From an uncultured Nitrososphaerota archaeon (lineage in GTDB: Archaea; Thermoproteota; Nitrososphaeria; Nitrososphaerales; Gagatemarchaeaceae): a DNA stretch of 64,000 nucleotides. Below, piece by piece: positions 21,840 to 60,211 of this stretch. A program made the translations under genes and the position numbers. The notes under the pieces are model-generated. The model was not told the DNA's origin. It worked only from the letters and a program-made list of their open reading frames with translations, and did no database searches. The DNA lies in contig CAVRAG010000008.1 in NCBI GenBank assembly GCA_963718895.1, forward strand, positions 1,280,001-1,344,000, given 5' to 3'. The first letter of the stretch is position 1, and each line of letters starts with the position of its first letter.

Positions 21840-21953
21840 GCGGTCGTCGTCCAGATCACACTTGAGGACAATCTGGTCTAGGACATAAGCCCTCCAAGCT
21901 TGTAATCCCGCAAAACGGGACAGGAGACCCGGGTTCAAATCCCGGCGACCGCA
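21840..21953 (+). tRNA. tRNA-Gly(TCC) with two non-canonical introns (15/16 at 21855-21871; 45/46 at 21905-21926)
   Basis: Acceptor GCGGTCG/CGACCGC+A; T-arm CCGGG-TTCAAAT-CCCGG; anticodon stem TAAGC/GCTTG; both inserts form bulge-helix-bulge-like motifs (GTCC/GGAC; CTTG/CAGG); position 33 reads C. Confidence 0.88.
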
Positions 21954-21996
21954 CATCTATCACATGAGACGGTCGGAGTTTGTAAAGACTCGTTGG

Positions 21997-22032
21997 GATT
22001 TGAACCTAAAGTCAGGTGCACAAACACCGCAC
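21997..22032 (+). repeat. att-like site S1
   Basis: GATTTGAACC-TAAAG-N14-ACCGCAC. Confidence 0.7.
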
Positions 22033-26335: not shown

Positions 26336-26371
26336 GATTTGAACCTAGAGTGTGATGCTCGACGACCGCAC
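26336..26371 (+). repeat. att-like site S3
   Basis: GATTTGAACC-TAGAG-N14-ACCGCAC (CGACCGCAC). Confidence 0.75.
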
Positions 26372-26426: not shown

Positions 26427-26882
26427 ATGCAAGCGACATACTATTATTTGGTGAGAAAGCATACAGCAGAGAGATTGGGAGAGTCGTTAGTCTTGGGAGT
26501 AGAAAATGTGTTCAAAATAGCGACGACCTACGCCGTAGTTCGCGGGTTCCTGACAAGCAACGGTTGGGAACTCCAGGGAAAGGATGAGGAAATGGAGATG
26601 GACTCGTTCAGAAACAAGAAGACAGGGAAGAAGCTGTTCGTCGAGGAGATTTCGGAGGACTTTCCAGTGACCTTTCTTATGGGCGAGCTTAGCATGGCGG
26701 AGTTCGGGAACATCGCTAGTGAACTGACGCCGGAAATCGAGTTACTTGAAGTCGACAGTAGTTGGGAAGGCAAACCGACGACCATCGTGTGCGCGATGAC
26801 AGAAGAGCAAGTTAGGAGCATGTTCGGCAGAAGAACGAGGATGAGAAAGGTTGCGGTTCACCGCACGGCGTCACAGATTTGA
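26427..26882 (+). CDS. Hypothetical protein filling the S3-S4 cassette
   Basis: Single ORF; its TGA stop lies within the GATTTGAACC arm of S4; start uncertain (26352 or 26427). Confidence 0.6.
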   Translation: MQATYYYLVRKHTAERLGESLVLGVENVFKIATTYAVVRGFLTSNGWELQGKDEEMEMDSFRNKKTGKKLFVEEISEDFPVTFLMGELSMAEFGNIASELTPEIELLEVDSSWEGKPTTIVCAMTEEQVRSMFGRRTRMRKVAVHRTASQI

Positions 26883-26913
26883 ACCTGAAGGTCTAAATTC
26901 CCGGCGACCGCAC
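26876..26913 (+). repeat. att-like site S4 (outer attR)
   Basis: GATTTGAACC-TGAAG-GTCTAAATTCCCGGCG-ACCGCAC; 15-nt exact match to the tRNA-Gly 3' end. Confidence 0.85.
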
Positions 26914-38279: not shown

Positions 38280-38505
38280 CGGCTTGGAGTCGGCATGTAG
38301 GCGTCCCACGCTCCCGCATCTCTCTTCTCCCACTCGCCCTTCCGGCGAATGGCCATCGCGCAGCAAGCAGGGCCGCGAGTCTGCGGCGCATTCCTGGTCT
38401 CTGCCGAGTTCTCCCTCAAGACTCACCTGTGGCGACCGCGAAACTCTTTAAGCTTTGGCGGAAAGAAATTCTTAAGTGAGGTCGGCTTGGAGCTTGCACT
38501 GCGGT

Positions 38506-38644
38506 GCCAGGGTAGCTCAGAAGCGCCAATCTCGCTGGGAAACCTGGGAGAGAGAACAGCCTCTAACACTCGGCTGAAGACCGAGAGCAATTATCGCGTG
38601 ATGATTGCCGGGAGCTGTCGTCGGTTCAAATCCGGCCCCTGGCA
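38506..38644 (+). tRNA. tRNA-Phe(GAA) with three non-canonical introns (15/16 at 38521-38542; 24/25 at ~38553-38566; 43/44 at 38586-38614)
   Basis: Removing the three BHB-like inserts gives GCCAGGGTAGCTCAGCCTGGGAGAGCACTCGGCTGAAGACCGAGCTGTCGTCGGTTCAAATCCGGCCCCTGGCA, a canonical cloverleaf. Confidence 0.9.
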
Positions 38645-38715
38645 TCCCCCGCCTCTCCTTGTCGCGCCGAATGTGGGGGATCTCGGTCGGAGGTCCCCCA
38701 GGATTGTGAAACCAA

Positions 38716-53421: not shown

Positions 53422-53460
53422 GGTGCGGGGGGTGAGAATTTATCCCTTCGGGTTCGAATC
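53422..53460 (-). repeat. att-like site S5 (attR of the Leu island)
   Basis: Minus strand GATTCGAACC-CGAAG-GGATAAATTCT-CACCCCCCGCACC. Confidence 0.85.
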
Positions 53461-54287
53461 GGCATCCGGCCTTGACTGTCACAACCTCGAAGCAGCGTGA
53501 GCATCTCTAAACGACCGCAAAAATGCATATTCTGAGGCGGTCGGAATAGTTGCTCGACTCCAATTCATTAAGACAGCCCACTTTTGTCACTAACCGTCGT
53601 GTCCGCATACATTTCAGTAATGTCGCCCTTCGGTAATGAAGTTCAGTTAGCAGGTCCCAGAGTATATTGCGGTGAATGTTTGGTCGCTTTGAGTTGCTGT
53701 GACCGTCCTCTCAGGATTAGTACTTCCTGTATCTTGCCATTTCTCGAAGGTACAAGAGCCATAGTTATGCGAGTCCACAGTGTAGCTATAGCCTGAAGTA
53801 AGGCCAGTGAAGGTCACTGGCGTATATCCTGATTGTACTACGACCCCACCATAGTAAAGAGTGGTGTAGTATCCTGTGATCGGGTCGCCGCTCGTATTTA
53901 CCGAATTTACTGTGATGCCCGAACAATCGTATACTGCAGTATACAGCTGTGGGTCTTCAGTTGCTACAACCGTGAGTGGATTGCTTGCACTTCCACCAAC
54001 CCAGTTTTCGAAAACACAACTTCCGTAATTGTCAGCTTGGAGTGTGTATATGTTCAAACCCGTGACGAAGAATTGCGGTGTGAATCCAGTTGATACTATG
54101 GTCCCACTCTGGCGGAGAACGACATAATATCCCGTAATTGGAGTCCCAGCCACATTCTGGGAGTTCACTAGAATATTCGAGTACGAAAAGAGTTGATACT
54201 GCTTACCTGAAGCTGCGTAAAGAGGTGAGTACCCCATGTTAGAGGCTTCACCTGTAGATACTCCGTTATAGCAAGTGGATGATCCTC

Positions 54288-55323
54288 AGGTGTGTCGAAT
54301 AACTAACTCCTCTGTCAACCTTCTTTCATTCGTTCCCTGATGGGATTGAGAAGATCTCGCTCTCTCGTGCCCGAGAAGAAGAAGCGGAACTGGAAGGAGT
54401 ACAACGAGTCGCTGGTGAGGAGGGGAGAACTCCTCTTCGATACCGATTTTTTATCTGGTTGGAGCAGAGAACTAGAGAGTCTCAACGAGGAGAAGGAAGG
54501 AGCGAGGTATCGCTATCCAGACTCGTTAATGAGTATGCTCGCAGCCATCCACGTGTACCTGCTCCCGTACAGGGAGCTGGAAGGGTTCCTCAGGATGTTC
54601 TCGGGGCACGTAGAAGGGTTGAGAGTCCCAGACTACACCACGATGTGGTGGAGGATATCAAGGGTGAAGGTGGAGCTCGACCCAAGTGTGGATCCAAAGG
54701 AAGACGTGACCATAGCGGTTGACTCGACTGGCATCAAGGTCTCCAACCACGGGGACTGGATGAGGCACGTCTGGAAGGTGAAGCGGCCCTTCATCAAGGT
54801 ACATCTCGCAGTGGACGTCAGGACCGGGAAGATACTGTCGATGGAGGTGACGAAGGAAGAGGTAAGAGACGCAGAGATGCTCGTCCCGCTGGTCGAGCGA
54901 GCGTCCTCGAGCGCGAAGGTGGCGAGGCTGATGGGCGACGGGGGATACGATTCGAGAGCCAACTTCAGGTACCTCCACGATAACGGGATTGAGCCCGTCA
55001 TCAAGGTAAGGAAAAATGCCTCGTCGCACGCACACGGGTGCATGCCGAGGAAGCTCGTCGCGATGGAGCAGCTGAGAGACTACGAGAGATGGAAGACGAG
55101 GCACGGGTACGGCCAGAGAGCGAGGGTCGAGTCGGCGATATCGTCGTTCAAGAGGACGTTCGGGGAGCACGTAACCTCGGTGAGGTGGAGGAGCGTGGTC
55201 AACGAGCTGCTCGTCAAGGCGTCGGTCTACAACCTGTTCGTCGGGAAGAACCTGTAGCAATGGCTAGGAGTCGGCGAAACCACGAGCAAGAAGTGACGCA
55301 CCGTCAAGTTATTCGACACACCT
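54288..55323 (+). mobile_element. IS5-family (IS903/ISH1-like) insertion sequence
   Basis: Perfect 17-bp TIR AGGTGTGTCGAATAACT; near-perfect 9-bp target duplication ATGATCCTC / ATGATCACTC. Confidence 0.93.
54340..55257 (+). CDS. IS5-family DDE transposase
   Basis: RNWKEYNESLVRRG, PDYTT, AVDSTG, KVHLAVD, GDGGYD, YGQRARVES. Confidence 0.95.
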   Translation: MGLRRSRSLVPEKKKRNWKEYNESLVRRGELLFDTDFLSGWSRELESLNEEKEGARYRYPDSLMSMLAAIHVYLLPYRELEGFLRMFSGHVEGLRVPDYTTMWWRISRVKVELDPSVDPKEDVTIAVDSTGIKVSNHGDWMRHVWKVKRPFIKVHLAVDVRTGKILSMEVTKEEVRDAEMLVPLVERASSSAKVARLMGDGGYDSRANFRYLHDNGIEPVIKVRKNASSHAHGCMPRKLVAMEQLRDYERWKTRHGYGQRARVESAISSFKRTFGEHVTSVRWRSVVNELLVKASVYNLFVGKNL

Positions 55324-56070
55324 ATGATCACTCCCAAAGCATATTGAGTGATGGAGTATCCACTAGGATAGGTAAACTCACCGTTACCTCCGATAAAAGT
55401 CACATTGGAATCACCCGACCCGACCAATGCCGCAGCTTTAGTGGCATATTGGAATACCTGGGCTACAATCGCGTTTGTTTGTGACACTAGCTGTTCATAG
55501 TTTCCGCCGGTAAGAATTGGCACATATTTTGCATATACGGAGTCATTATCGGCATAATTGGCGTTGCTGGTATAAATGAAGTACTTGGCTCCTATGGCCT
55601 GATTTTCCGCGTTCAGTACCACTTGTATCCTATTCACGTATCCACCGAGACCGATGTAATAGTCCACGTTCGCTTGAGCATTATCGTAAAAGTGGTTATA
55701 TGGAATCTGAAGGTCTATGCCGGTCTGACTGCCATTATCAGTGGGGTGCATTACGAACTGATACCAGTCATAGTAAGAAGCGGTCGATGCTGTACCAGCG
55801 TTAAGCTGCCATCCCCAACTATCAGCATTCGCATAGCCTGTGTACTGCGCGTAACTTTCAGACAGTATGGTCTGATTTACGAACATTGTTACGGTTGGGT
55901 CAATCGGAGGGCAAGTAGAATTGGCAGCCATGACCAGGGTATCGCCTCCCTTGTACGGGCCTAGGTAAGACGCGCCGGCACTAGACAGTCCACCAAGACC
56001 TGTTAGAATAAGAAGAATCATTGCCAAAGCCGAATAAATTCCGCGGCATGTAATCATTTTCAAGAACCTT

Positions 56071-56934
56071 CTAAGCTGGATTAATCGTCTCACAGATGAT
56101 CGAACTCTCGAATGAGAAAGTTAATCCGGCTTGGGGTAGAGCATCAGGAAGAGCCGTATACGAGCCAGATGCCTCGTAAGTGTTAGGGAGCTGAAACGAA
56201 GACTGTCCGTAAGCCGGGCCAGTTCCCATCGATCGATCTGAAGCCGACCAACCGCTCACCCATAGTGAATGATCCGCGATAAAGGCCACCGAGAAAAGGC
56301 TGTCTTGGGACATGGTCAAATTGTATCCGAGAGCACTGAATCCCGCAATCATCGTATGGTTAGATATCGCGATTATCTGATTGGCGGTTCCATTTGGATC
56401 CTTAGTAAGAGACGTACAATCGTTTGGCTGGCAAAGGTCAGGCAGATTCTCGCTAGTGCTCGTCAATCGGTCATGGTTTGAATCGTAAAGCCCAAGCGTC
56501 AGATTTATGTTGCTGTCATCGGCGAAAACGTAGAAATTAAATTCTCCTGAAATGTAGTTGGAGATGCTCTCCGGATAGACGAAATTGACCCATACTAGCG
56601 TATTTGCCGGAACTAACATACCTGAGGGGCCATTTCCTCCGTTGCCAAACGTAACAACCGCGTGCTCATATTCCGTAGTGGTACTTAGACTGGTCGAAAA
56701 GATGGAAGTTGTAGTAGTAGTTGTAGGGCTTGTTGATGTAATGGAAGTAGACCCAGAGGACGTCGACAGTGTTTGACCCGAAGTCGCCGCGGGACTATTG
56801 GTAGCGACGAAGAATGCGCCTGCTCCCACAGATGCAATGACCAGAATGGAAACAAAAGCGACTGCGGCAGAGATAGCCGCACGACTCGACCTGTACCTGA
56901 TCGAATGCTTCTTGTCGCGCATCTGATGAGCCAA
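56071..56934 (-). CDS. Hypothetical membrane-anchored secreted protein
   Basis: RAAIS.. signal/anchor helix, Ser/Thr linker, globular domain. Confidence 0.7.
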   Translation of the reverse strand: MAHQMRDKKHSIRYRSSRAAISAAVAFVSILVIASVGAGAFFVATNSPAATSGQTLSTSSGSTSITSTSPTTTTTTSIFSTSLSTTTEYEHAVVTFGNGGNGPSGMLVPANTLVWVNFVYPESISNYISGEFNFYVFADDSNINLTLGLYDSNHDRLTSTSENLPDLCQPNDCTSLTKDPNGTANQIIAISNHTMIAGFSALGYNLTMSQDSLFSVAFIADHSLWVSGWSASDRSMGTGPAYGQSSFQLPNTYEASGSYTALPDALPQAGLTFSFESSIICETINPA

Positions 56935-57329
56935 TATCCTCCATTATCCTAATTCTTAGCGGTCAGACATGGTCTTAAGCTCTACGCAGTGATGTTATGT
57001 ATCGTAGTTACATGATACGCCTTTCTGGTCAAGGCCGCCAAACATGTAGAGAGAAGTACTGCTTATCCAACGCCCTATAGCATGTTGCAGCTATGGCGAT
57101 TGATACGAGTATGGCATGTTTCGTGGCTAGCATTGGTCAACTTTTGCGTAAAGGGATGATAGAGCGAACCGCTCTCGATAGTAGAGTTCTCACTCTCGCT
57201 CGCTACGGCGGAATTCACCCCCTGCCCCCTCTTCCGCCTCCGCTCGTTCGACCCTCCGCTAGCGCTCCGGGGTTCGCCCTCCTACCGTCGGGCTCCGTGA
57301 GCCCTCTACTATCGAAGCGGTGAGGGCAC

Positions 57330-58882
57330 TTACGTTCCCTCCCCGACCCTACGGGTCGGCTCCCCTCCCTCCTTCAGGGGGCGTGAGGGGGCTCGGCTTT
57401 GCTCTCGTTTGCTGCGGCTCCTGCTGCTCCAATGGCTTCCTTTAGCTCCGGCAGGGTTGCTATCTTGACTCTCTCCGCGGCGTAGCGCGAGTATCTCCCC
57501 GCTTCCTCGTAGTTCGGCGCCAGGATCGATCATCCGCTTGGCGCTCTTGGAAAGGCGCTCCTGCAAGTCCGCTTTTGAGTGCTTCAAGCCCGTCTCTATC
57601 TCTAAGTCGAACTCTGGCGTCTCTATGTCTGGAACCGACCCGTCGCCTGTGGAATTCGTCTTCGATACGGTCACACCGCTAGCCGTGAGTATGCTCACCG
57701 CCTCCTTCTGCATGTAGTCGTGGATGGGAGAGAGGTTCGGGTCCCTGACATAGTAGAGAACCTTTCCCTTTCCCATCGAGTCGAGGTATCGTATGCGCCC
57801 TATCCCCGTCTGGTGGAGCGGTTCCTTCCTCAGGATATTCAGTATCTCGTTCTCGTAGTCTGTGGTATCGGCCCTCTTCGGCTGGAGGGGAGCGACATTG
57901 GCGGGCTCGTCGTACTGCACCTGCCGCTCTGGAAGCTCGGCCCTGTCCGCCCTGAAGATGGGGACTATGCCACCGTTCCCCACCCGAAAGGTGAGGTCGA
58001 TGAACTGATGCGGTCGAAGCTCCTTCACTATCCAGACGTAGGCGGAATCAATCTTACGTATCGCCTCCAGATCCATCTCTGACGTAGTGTTGAAAGTGAG
58101 TTGGGTAGCGAACTGGTTCCTTAGCGCGCGTCTGGGATATCCGAATAGTTCTGTGTAGCTGTGTAGAGAGCACCGAACTGCCTCACCTGCCTCATCAACG
58201 TGTCAACGATCGTCCTCGCCTCAGTCTCGTAGAGCTGGGTCAGCCTGTGAACCTCGTCTATCACGATGATGGTCTTCTTCTGCTTCTCTTGGACGCTAAT
58301 GCTACTGGTGAGTGAGCTCCATATCTGCCTGAGCGCAATCTCTGCGTAGAACGTCTTCGCGCTCTCGTCGAGATGAGAGAAGTCGAGGACGGCGTCCGTG
58401 GCGAGGTCTACGCTGAAGGAACCTTCCCCAACGACTAGACCCCCAATCTGAGCCTCTATCAGCGCCAGCGCCTCCTTCTGTATGTCCGTGCCCTTCCTCT
58501 CGGCGTGCTTGAGGTTGTCCCTGAACTCGCTCCAGTTCTTACTTTGGCGAGCGGTGCTCTTGACTAACGCCCGGACCTGCGAGAATGTGATTCCTCTTAC
58601 GTTCGCGGGGAAGGCGAGAGCGTTTGCTATCGCGAACGCATCAGCATCCTGGAACGGGTCGGGTATGTGTCTTGAGACGTCTACCACCTGGCACGGCATC
58701 CGAAGGTAAGCGTCGTTTGGCTTGAACGAGAAGACGGTCTTCGGTTCCTTCGCCGAGAGCAGGAGGACGTTCATCAGCTCGCTCTTGTCCATTCCAGAGC
58801 GGCCGCAGATCATCACGGACGGGTTCCCCTTCCGTCCAATGTATTCGTCAAAGTTCACGTAGCAGATTCTTGCCATAATCAA
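57330..58882 (-). pseudogene. HerA/VirB4-like ATPase with C-terminal PD-(D/E)xK-like domain, split by frameshifts
   Basis: Walker A GRSGMDKS (expected GK), Walker B IVIDEVH, ATQ; frame continues (LRNQFATQLTF) after a CG duplication near 58125; PDI...LEIETG; further shift near 57527; end approximate. Confidence 0.7.
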
Positions 58883-60069
58883 GAGGTTGGAGCGCCAGAT
58901 AGGTACTTCTCGACGACCTTCCTGAGCCTGGCTAGCTCTTCCCTTGTGCTTTCGTCCTCGACCTGCATCCTGCTCCTTGCACCTTCATCGAGGGGAGAGG
59001 CGCACCGTGGACAGTAGACCATGCCTCTGGATGCCTTCTCGTTGCAGCGCGGGCAGATAATCGGTGCAAACTCTGGCTTGGTCGGTTCCACCTTCTCACC
59101 CGAATATAGGGCAGTTAGCTTGTCATCCAGGTCTCTCCCCGAAAGGTGGACGTAGACGGCGGGCATCTTGCTACTCATAGACCATCCATACATCAGCTTG
59201 AGTTCAGAATCCGTGAGGAACTTCGCGTTTCTGGTCGCCGAGCCGTGTCTCAGCATGTGGTTGAAGACCCTCTTCTTCACTCCCGCACGTAGCGCTAGCT
59301 GCTTCAGGCAGCGGTTCCACCTGACCCAGCTTAGCCGTTGGTTCTTGTAGTTTGTGCTCTCCGTGAGCCATAATGGAGAGGAAGGCTCGTTCCTGAACGG
59401 GTGAACCTCCAGGTATCGAGCGAGCAGGCTCACAGAGGTTATCAGCCTCACGACCCTGCTTCCTGTCTTCCCCCTCTCGATGTGAAGCCTCGCCCCTCTA
59501 TCGTCAAAGACGACGCTCCCGATGTTGAGGGTGAGCAACTCGGTAGCTCTCAGCCCTGCCTCGTAGCCGACTGCCAACATAGCCTTGTCCCTCAGACTGG
59601 TCGCCGCCTTGATCATGACCTCGATTTCCTCGCTGGTGAAGAAGAGAGGCTCCTTGCGCTCGTTCGCCTTTATGGCGGTCTTGATCCATCTTACCTCCTC
59701 TGGGTAGGGCGTCTCTCTGTCCACGTTCCCAGTTCTTGCGAACTTGAAGAACCTCTTCACAGCAAAGAGATAGTCCGAAATCGTGTGCGGCGTATAGCCG
59801 GAGTCGCTCTGCAACCATGCGACTAGTCCCTCGATGTCTCCCCTCTTTGCTTGCTGGGTGCTTGTCCCGAGGCGTTCGATTGCGTTCTTCAGGTGATAGG
59901 TGTACTTGGCAAGCCTTCCAGTGGATACGCCCTGAGCCTTCAGATGTTGAACGAACCTGCGAATCACCTCCTTGTCCTCATTGCAGATTCGCGCTGATTC
60001 GTCCAGGCGCTTCTGAGCGTTCGCGAGTCGCGATTCGTAATCATACACCTCCTCGATTACGTCCTTCAT
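58879..60069 (-). CDS. Tyrosine recombinase/integrase with C-terminal zinc ribbon
   Basis: RDKA..YEAGLRATE, GKTG, HMLRHG, YGWS, VYVH; CPRC..CPRC. Confidence 0.95.
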   Translation of the reverse strand: MKDVIEEVYDYESRLANAQKRLDESARICNEDKEVIRRFVQHLKAQGVSTGRLAKYTYHLKNAIERLGTSTQQAKRGDIEGLVAWLQSDSGYTPHTISDYLFAVKRFFKFARTGNVDRETPYPEEVRWIKTAIKANERKEPLFFTSEEIEVMIKAATSLRDKAMLAVGYEAGLRATELLTLNIGSVVFDDRGARLHIERGKTGSRVVRLITSVSLLARYLEVHPFRNEPSSPLWLTESTNYKNQRLSWVRWNRCLKQLALRAGVKKRVFNHMLRHGSATRNAKFLTDSELKLMYGWSMSSKMPAVYVHLSGRDLDDKLTALYSGEKVEPTKPEFAPIICPRCNEKASRGMVYCPRCASPLDEGARSRMQVEDESTREELARLRKVVEKYLSGAPTS

Positions 60070-60126
60070 GCCATACCGGAGAACGTCTGCTTTTAACGGA
60101 GAGAGATTTGCACTCATGGCGTAAGG

Positions 60127-60211
60127 TGCGGGGGGTGGGATTCGAACCCACGAACCCCTAAGGGATTGGAGCCTCAGTCCAACGCCGTTGGCCATGCTGG
60201 GCGACCCCCGC
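60127..60211 (-). tRNA. tRNA-Leu(GAG), intronless, long variable arm
   Basis: GCGGGGG/CCCCCGC acceptor, TTGGA-CTGAGGC-TCCAA anticodon arm, GTGGG-TTCGAAT-CCCAC. Confidence 0.95.

Follow-up and report, generated by a model that had tools for sequence, protein, structure and literature searches.

Does an element that inserts into transfer RNA (tRNA) genes choose its target by base pairing between its own attachment (att) site and the tRNA? The question is raised by a 64,000-nt stretch of an archaeal genome of the Nitrososphaerota (G000:C8:1280001-1344000, hereafter the window; the source assembly has 3.1 Mb and 59% G+C). Here, an island with a tyrosine integrase gene adjoins tRNA-Leu(GAG), and the far end of the island carries an inverted copy of the tRNA T-loop segment, hereafter the left arm. 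A first description made from the letters alone (the sequence-only reading) held that this arm covaries with the target T-loop and that target choice may involve pairing between the two. Comparison with the att sites of homologous integrases leads to a different answer. The left arm has a counterpart, the right arm, on the other side of the crossover region, and the two arms track each other rather than the target tRNA, a direction that is clear in the compared sites even though their sample is small. Most probably, the arms are symmetric protein-binding boxes that flank the crossover region, and a choice of target by base pairing is very unlikely.

The tRNA-Leu(GAG) gene is the only tRNA gene of the window identified by ARAGORN and Rfam (60125/60127-60211, minus strand). 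Its last 13 nt, GGTGCGGGGGGTG on the plus strand, occur in two exact copies, at 53422-53434 and 60125-60137; a search that allows up to two mismatches gives five matches in the window, including these two. That the tRNA 3' end recurs exactly at the far end, 6,703 bp from the first copy, is what is expected of a tRNA-targeting integrative element, and a repeat search extends the repeat to 29 nt at 79% identity. An 11-nt inverted repeat, GGGTTCGAATC / GATTCGAACCC, is present at 53450-60 and 60139-49. Its distal member GGGTTCGAATC sits 16 nt inside the distal core copy and is the reverse complement of the T-loop segment (a 10/11-nt inverted copy of the T-loop). On the minus strand the distal site reads GATTCGAACC-CGAAG-GGATAAATTCTCAC-CCCCCGC-ACC, with 38 nt from the start of the arm to the end of CCGCAC. 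The sequence-only reading had described an island bracketed by a 13-bp direct and an 11-bp inverted repeat, and all its coordinates as well as the 38-nt spacing are correct. The motif GGTTCRAATC occurs seven times in the window against 0.30 occurrences expected. The features are collected in Table 1, where attP denotes the att site of the element and attB that of the target.

Table 1. Features of the island, its att sites and the Gly-type sites (window coordinates; ORF, open reading frame)
Feature	Position	Strand	Evidence or remark
Gly-type att remnant, arm GATTTGAACC, 36-nt class, 42 nt after tRNA-Gly	21997..22032	+	
Gly-type att remnant, 36-nt class	26336..26371	+	
Gly-type att remnant, 38-nt class (the Leu-site spacing), 15-nt identity to tRNA-Gly 3' end	26876..26913	+	
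Core direct repeat, 13 bp, distal copy (island end)	53422..53434	-	
Spacer CGAAGGGATAAATTCT between arm and core, AT-rich, TATA-like, replaces the T-loop in attP	53435..53450	-	
Left arm (P) box GATTCGAACC (minus-strand reading), outer limit of conserved attP	53451..53460	-	
ORF, 196 aa	53647..54237	-	no family match
IS5-family insertion sequence	54285..55330	+	NCBIfam transpos_IS5_2, 249 bits
IS5 terminal inverted repeats, perfect, 17 bp	54288-54304 and 55307-55323		
IS5 transposase	54340-55257	+	
ORF	55227-56093	-	no family match
ORF	56071-56934	-	no family match
ORF	57330-58076	-	no family match
Fragment, 253 aa, like the C-terminal part of a VirB4/TraC/HerA-type ATPase	58121..58882	-	weak matches, far below cut-offs
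Tyrosine integrase: SAM-like core-binding and catalytic domains, C-terminal CxxC...CxxC zinc ribbon	58879..60117	-	Pfam
TATA-like box CCGTTAAAAGCA, about 24 nt before ATG 60069, candidate integrase promoter	60088..60099	-	
Right arm (P') box AGTGCAAATC, 13 nt past the acceptor strand, T-loop-like, direct orientation	60105..60114	-	fixed offset in homologs of at least 49% identity
Core direct repeat, 13 bp, tRNA-proximal copy: last 3 nt of T-stem, 7-nt acceptor 3' strand, discriminator A, CC	60125..60137	-	
tRNA-Leu T-loop segment, GGGTTCGAATC in tRNA sense, one arm of the 11-bp inverted repeat	60139..60149	-	
tRNA-Leu(GAG), integration target, attB half kept, gene intact	60125..60211	-	ARAGORN; Rfam RF00005, 49.8 bits

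The integrase next to the tRNA has an intact frame of 412 aa from ATG 60117 or 396 aa from ATG 60069. The match to Pfam PF00589 (Phage_integrase; residues 160-326, 61.1 bits against a cut-off of 27.1) places it in the tyrosine recombinase superfamily. Alignment of 37 homologs shows no variation at the catalytic residues R190, K217, R290, W312, and Y322 or at the zinc-ribbon cysteines C355, C358, C369, and C372; H287 is present in the window protein. The gene is, by these domains and residues, the intact zinc-ribbon tyrosine integrase that the sequence-only reading had seen in it. The best NCBIfam match, recomb_XerA_Arch (NF040815), reaches 100.1 bits against a cut-off of 220, which leaves the protein outside XerA. 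The att core lies outside the integrase gene, with an uninterrupted 412-aa frame beside the tRNA-proximal repeat, as in integrases that stay intact on integration; we take this class to be the one called pNOB8-type, or type II. No second copy was found by tblastn in the 3.1-Mb assembly, and the nearest relatives are encoded in metagenome-assembled genomes of Nitrososphaerota. The position of ATG 60117 reads ACG, TAG, or ACA in relatives and the database version of the protein has 396 aa; by this comparison, ATG 60117 is probably not the true start and ATG 60069 is the likelier one. With the latter start, the right arm is most likely non-coding. Relatives conserve a TATA-like CGTTAAA[AT]GC / CCTTAAAAAG at the position of the integrase promoter, and the distance of the box to ATG 60069 suggests that the integrase transcript may be leaderless.

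A profile built from the 37 homologs yielded 79 loci in species-representative genomes and 80 loci in metagenomes, designated here by L numbers. In 33 of the 79 genome loci a same-strand tRNA predicted by ARAGORN ends just upstream of the integrase gene; the names given by ARAGORN to the targets are Leu, Gly, Thr, Ser, Arg, Phe, Met, Asn, and Pro. A looser regular expression detected a T-arm with an acceptor strand upstream of 77 integrases in the 160 sequences, with seven cases judged spurious by eye. The far ends of L002 and L003 (Leu, 84-90% identity) and of L004 (Gly, 74%) lie inside the 10-kb flanks. Extension by 12-50 kb revealed far ends in seven of ten loci (L008, L012, L014, L018, L054, L064, and L073), and none was located in the extended L015, L069, and L071. 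The metagenome loci provided one more far end (L163, one of 80), as did three further genomes (L245); a search of 401 genomes of the class found 14 with a close homolog, mostly already in the set. Wherever a far end was found the arm occupies the same offset, which, together with the upstream tRNA genes, supports the earlier suggestion that this integrase family is the likely catalyst.

Ten islands of the Nitrososphaerota type, the window included, represent eight lineages and have a common layout: left arm (10 nt), 19 nt, acceptor 3' strand (7 nt), 13 nt, right arm (10 nt). The integrases behind this geometry are 44-90% identical to the window integrase. The centre of the layout is the first nucleotide of the acceptor strand, which is covered by every direct repeat (11-17 nt). 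The islands L002 and L003 are homologous to that of the window and occupy the same tRNA. Among these three, island-side identity begins 2 nt outside the arm (38/40 positions), and the sequences beyond that point are unrelated; the arm is thus the outer edge of the conserved attP half-site. The right arms in most homologs of at least 49% identity read NGTNCAAATC at a fixed offset (this comparison includes L009 from the unpublished genome G002, on which no conclusion depends). In the islands compared, integration leaves the left arm and the integrase 6.7-37 kb apart. These comparisons support the arm as a conserved and probably functional part of the attP of the family.

To examine how the arms relate to their targets, three 10-mers were compared for each lineage: the target T-loop, the left arm as its reverse complement, and the right arm (Table 2). 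Matches were also counted for every permutation of the eight lineages. At the C/T position flagged in the sequence-only reading, the left arm matches its own T-loop in four of eight lineages and mismatches it in L163 (arm T, loop G), L014 (arm T, loop G), L018 (arm C, loop A), and L245 (arm A, loop A). Inspection by eye confirmed the tRNA sequences in the discordant cases L163, L014, and L018, and that of L245 was also verified; in L014 only 5/10 positions of the left arm agree with the T-loop. Overall, left arms match their own T-loops no better than those of other lineages (68/80 against 66.4 expected, permutation p=0.24), and the same holds for right arms (60 against a mean of 59.9; fraction of permutations at least as good, 0.60). 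Left arms do match their own right arms better than permuted ones (65/80 against 57.4, p=0.011). Two lineages illustrate this: the left arm of L245 is an exact 10/10 inverted copy of its right arm and agrees with the T-loop at 8/10 positions, and L008 has ATTCAAATC in both arms versus GTTCAAATC in the T-loop.

Table 2. T-loop and arm 10-mers of the eight lineages
Lineage	Target T-loop	Left arm (reverse complement)	Right arm
Window/L002/L003	GGTTCGAATC	GGTTCGAATC	AGTGCAAATC
L004	GGTTCAAATC	GGTTCAAATC	CGTTCAAATC
L008	GGTTCAAATC	GATTCAAATC	CATTCAAATC
L012	GGTTCAAATC	GGTTCAAATC	GGTGCAAATC
L163	GGTTCGAATC	CGTTCAAATC	GGGACAAATC
L014	GGTCCGAATC	CAATCAAATC	ATGTCTAATC
L018	GGTTCAAATC	AGTTCGAATC	AGTCCTAATC
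L245	GGTCCAAATC	GGTCTTAATC	GGTCTTAATC

Symmetry of the arms is also seen where they do not resemble a T-loop. The Bathyarchaeia subfamily (35% identity; L073 and L064) has inverted arms GCYTTTAYAC / GTATAAAAGC, the left box GCCTTTATAC or GCTTTTACAC being an inverted copy of the right box GTATAAAAGC just past the tRNA, with offsets within 1-2 nt of the Nitrososphaerota-type layout. These arms are TATA-like and surround a 12-nt core at the tRNA 3' end (L073:19650-19711; in L064 after extension, at about +23.1 kb). When the reconstructed attPs (n=11, 200 shuffles) were scanned without bias for the inverted 10-mer that best relates their two halves, it fell at the arm geometry, with an inner distance of 37-43 nt, in five attPs (L004, L008, L012, L073, and L064); each scores 9/10, a value equalled by 9-24 of the 200 shuffles.

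Pairing of the inverted arm with the T-loop, as single-stranded DNA or with the tRNA itself, would guide target choice and would demand that the arm match its target. The window invites such a reading, as the match is perfect at both of its targets (Leu, GATTCGAACC versus TTCGAAT; three Gly sites, GATTTGAACC versus TTCAAAT), and arm and T-loop also agree at 10/10 positions in L002, L003, L004, and site 1 of L012. Yet half of the lineages break the rule at the diagnostic position, and the permutations reveal no preference for the own target. Moreover, in one integrase clade (L015, L026, and L161-L164) the same right-hand attP sequence stands beside tRNA-Leu genes of both T-loop variants, TTCGAAT (four loci) and TTCAAAT (two loci). 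Single-stranded att sites fold no better than dinucleotide shuffles (six strands from three sites, z from -0.96 to +1.01), and an inverted repeat in duplex DNA requires no pairing explanation. The comparison of homologs, which had been set beforehand as the test of covariation, came out negative, and the proposal that targets are chosen by base pairing loses its support with it. These results do not group the island with systems of guide- or pairing-dependent recombination such as integron attC sites, IS200/IS605, or IS110-type elements, and we consider pairing hardly credible. That the left arm agrees exactly with the Leu T-loop, with C rather than T, is in the sites compared a feature of the window lineage and not a rule.

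Another scenario leaves a role to the T-loop sequence but not to the individual target. A module of the integrase, perhaps the zinc ribbon, could read GTTCRAATC in any tRNA T-loop and in both attP arms, which we regard as possible but unlikely. The arms would then be general mimics of T-loops instead of copies of the target, and a constant anchor with an exchangeable core would let elements hop among tRNA genes, an extension that we likewise doubt. Such an anchor would fit the left arms, which are at least 8/10 T-loop-like in seven of eight lineages, the prevalence of NGTNCAAATC among right arms, and the range of targets, which covers nine tRNA identities (Leu to Pro), always at the 3' end and with short cores of 11-17 nt. 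It is difficult to reconcile with the geometry: in attB the T-loop has direct orientation and a distance of 5 nt to the centre, which makes it equivalent to neither arm, and the same place in attP is occupied by a degenerate AT-rich box (GGATAAATT for GGTTCGAAT). It also fails to account for the clade of L028, L030, L032, L167, and L168, where right arms (AGTATGGTTC / GGTATGGTGY) are only 3-4/10 T-loop-like, and for the Bathyarchaeia arms. The arms could instead be operators of the integrase gene, bound by a repressor or activator dimer on half-sites that flank promoter-like AT-rich boxes. The right arm indeed lies about 35-45 nt upstream of ATG 60069, just before the conserved TATA-like box, and the spacer after the left arm resembles a TFB recognition element (BRE) with a TATA box (CGAAGG GATAAATT) in most lineages. 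But the distance of the arms is fixed to the crossover core and not to the start codon, the arms are symmetric about the core, and the integrated left arm is many kilobases from the integrase gene. As an explanation of the arms, gene regulation is therefore improbable, although operator and recombination roles are compatible and not exclusive.

The AT-rich box at the place of the T-loop deserves a separate remark. At 53435-53450 and in the same columns of L002-L018 it has a BRE/TATA-like appearance, with CGAAGG GATAAATT, CGAAAG TTATTAAA, and TGTAAAG GTTTAAA as variants. It may act as a promoter confined to the excised circle, or serve as a binding site of the core type. That it drives the integrase only in the circle was dropped as the principal explanation in view of the conserved TATA-like box downstream of the right arm.

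Symmetric protein-binding boxes remain the most economical reading of the arms, by analogy with other integrases whose attP is larger than attB. On this view the element was inserted site-specifically at the 3' end of tRNA-Leu(GAG), and its own XerC/D-like tyrosine integrase was the catalyst. Its reconstructed attP would read, in tRNA sense, GATTCGAACC, 19 nt, CCCCCGC, 13 nt, AGTGCAAATC, followed by the integrase promoter and gene. The arms form an imperfect inverted repeat with its symmetry centre on the T-stem/acceptor junction, within the 13-bp identity where strand exchange, with cut positions that we infer, is expected to take place. They may be bound by the integrase or a partner; the C-terminal zinc ribbon, which is invariant, and an additional pair of integrase subunits are candidate binders. 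The arm boxes would distinguish attP from attB, and integration would split them, sending the left one to the far junction and keeping the right one by the tRNA with the integrase. Target choice would then depend on short core identity and protein readout.

Several points weigh against this reading or limit it. The identity of the binder is our inference. Exact 11-nt inverted repeats are by themselves unexceptional, with five exact pairs of exactly 11 nt in the same 7 kb; the arm stands above chance because it recurs at the same core offset in ten islands of homologous integrases. The arm-arm repeat is weak in the Leu lineage (7/10), and the unbiased scan misses the arm geometry in the window, L002, L003, L014, L018, and L054. 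The right arm varies among close relatives (AGTGCAAATC versus AGTCAGAATC). On average, left arms resemble the T-loop (68/80) slightly more than they resemble the right arm (65/80), and therefore the link to the T-loop at the level of the subfamily lacks an explanation; the eight lineages are, besides, a small and related sample. A search for the free attP pattern (arm+19+7+13+arm) in 11.2 Mb on both strands gave 12 matches, none beside an integrase or with a tRNA core, and thus the attP is a reconstruction. Finally, the integrases L010 and L037 are preceded by a tRNA 3' fragment only, with no left arm at the expected place. These fragments, of 11 nt (Gly, L010:9890-9960) and 21 nt (Leu, L037:9890-9960), stand before the integrase with the rest of the tRNA absent and are possibly junctions of tandem elements or rearranged ones.

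The window contains three further sites of this type, with the pattern GATTTGAACC-YNRAG-...-CCGCAC, downstream of an intron-containing tRNA-Gly gene with T-loop TTCAAAT. No further integrase of the Leu-island family is present in the window beside them. The family is represented at tRNA-Gly by L004, whose integrase is 74% identical to the window one and whose arm is GATTTGAACC, and therefore the Gly sites are tied to the same family; the sequence-only reading was right to assign one att architecture to the Leu and Gly sites. The 36-nt class is kept in the window (26336), in genome G004 (L085), and downstream of L012 (+30.2 kb). The three sites follow the tRNA-Gly gene in series, with spacings of 42 nt, 4.3 kb, and 0.5 kb. 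This tRNA-Gly(UCC)-like gene (21840-21955, plus strand) was missed by default ARAGORN and Rfam; it has acceptor strands 5' GCGGTCG / 3' CGACCGC and an anticodon loop CT-TCC-AA, and looks like a gene with two non-canonical introns, in the D-arm and the variable region. Another intron-containing tRNA (38505-38647, plus strand) was found only by a whole-genome ARAGORN run with introns allowed and accounts for a match to GGTTCAAATC at 38623.

Arm-like sites without a nearby family integrase are not confined to the window. In addition to its three Gly sites they comprise L085, L081, L086, L087, and L088 of G004 and L080 of G005, and look like remnants of earlier integrations. L085 has a matching arm 7.2 kb downstream of tRNA-Gly. 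No family integrase and no suitable tRNA was found less than about 10 kb from L081, L086, L087, and L088, and a search by degenerate pattern for tRNAs whose acceptor strands match gave no target for the G004 orphan sites. The latter read GATTCGAACC-TARAG-TCCAACTCCC... and others; the arm of L088 directly adjoins a 7-bp hairpin (TCCCTTC / GAAGGGA). L088 was not counted, as its core equals the tRNA (T-loop TTCAAAT) over 14 nt with an arm GATTCG and the site lies upstream of the tRNA copy. Two arm-like sites elsewhere in the genome of the window (C8:462700 and C4:237715) were dropped for want of a matching tRNA 3' end. The pattern GATTYGAACCYNRA applied to the whole genomes of L008, L009, and L011 gave one match each, none of them att-like; the true arm of L008, GATTTGAATC, is missed by this pattern. 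Two more loci of G004 are of note. In L099 (G004:C2:167568-170642), the last 10 nt of a tRNA and about 30 nt of similar downstream flank are repeated 1.2 kb downstream, apparently as a scar left by an element of another kind. In L089/L090 (G004:C2:~193818, minus strand), two arm-like boxes stand 12 nt apart (GATTTGAACCCGAAAAGCTGGGGACTTGAACCCGAAG), which would be explained either by duplication of the T-arm in a tRNA or by att remnants stacked on each other.

Apart from the integrase, the gene content of the island is meagre (Table 1). The fragment similar to VirB4/TraC/HerA-type ATPases is probably a truncated gene, and no winged-helix or MarR-like gene was found by Pfam among the scanned island ORFs. 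The region as a whole, from repeat to repeat, is probably a decayed cryptic integrated element. Public sequence data contain little of it: seven runs have at most 25% of the sampled island words, all as short assembled contigs. Four of these data sets, with short contigs of low depth, show neither a joint 53434-60138 nor a circle junction, a result that is uninformative either way on mobility. Loose contig ends at 60125/60126 do not continue into the flank left of 53422 and are most simply explained as tRNA-Leu genes of other organisms. One contig of run X1 links 54284 to 55331, and this peat metagenome thus holds an island copy free of the insertion sequence. A scan of viral contigs gave eight distant relatives with 22-37% identity, which were excluded from the analysis.

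The layout can be compared with several known systems. The lambda-type heterobivalent integrases have an attP larger than attB, with extra protein boxes outside the core that are split between the junctions on integration. In lambda there are several arm sites, at distances of up to about 100 bp; their sequence is unlike that of the core sites, and the N-terminal domain reads them. The family described here likewise has an attP larger than attB and outside boxes divided between the junctions. Unlike lambda, it has a single inverted box on each side, at a distance of 20-29 bp to the centre, and its extra domain is a C-terminal zinc ribbon.

In the archaeal XerA/dif system, inverted repeats surround a spacer, the 11-nt arms directly flanking 6 nt (Badel et al., 2021, PMC8371274). 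Unlike dif, the arms here are 39 nt apart and the integrase belongs to a mobile island beside a tRNA gene; in the accessible part of that review the terms 'arm-type', 'arm sites', and 'T-loop' do not occur. The nearest parallel, judging by the excerpts available of the published work, is the att site of the SNJ2 integrase, which has a 14-bp core over the tRNA 3' end and conserved P/P' and B arms (Wang et al., 2018, PMC5861418). According to the excerpts of the same source, the distance from integrase gene to core is constant within each subgroup of the SNJ2 type, whose integrases belong to haloarchaeal pleolipoviruses. Those excerpts describe no inverted-repeat or T-loop-like arms. By the same excerpts, SNJ2 integration needs the accessory proteins Orf2 and Orf3, which have no identified counterpart in the window island, and the SNJ2 core lies beyond the 3' end of the integrase gene, whereas the core of the window island lies upstream of the 5' end.

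The partial text of a survey of Thaumarchaeota lists 74 integrated elements with att repeats of 8-26 bp (median 17) and 57% of the integrations in tRNA genes, including intron-bearing ones (Krupovic et al., 2019, PMC6563490). The present islands resemble the XerC/XerD elements in that text in sharing hosts at the level of the phylum, in the intact integrase, in short repeats (here 11-17), and in being small and gene-poor. The text describes direct repeats and, as far as it goes, makes no mention of conserved inverted arm boxes at fixed spacing such as those found here. More generally, the literature on integrase att sites in tRNA genes, to the extent accessible, yielded no published description of an attP layout with inverted arms.

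In summary, the island is an ordinary decayed integrative element with a modestly new and well-defined att architecture. Integrases of Nitrososphaerota are known from genome surveys alone, and their short repeats (published minimum 8 bp) make element borders hard to call. The fixed attP layout provides a practical signature by which the ends of islands and leftover att sites, among the latter the three orphan Gly sites, can be recognised, and it defines test targets for the first biochemistry of this integrase family. The negative result is useful as well: the idea of pairing- or tRNA-guided targeting fails across the homologs. If the doubtful alternative of a T-loop-reading module were true, such a module would have a universal anchor in any tRNA gene, and retargeting would amount to a change of the core of about 11-17 nt.

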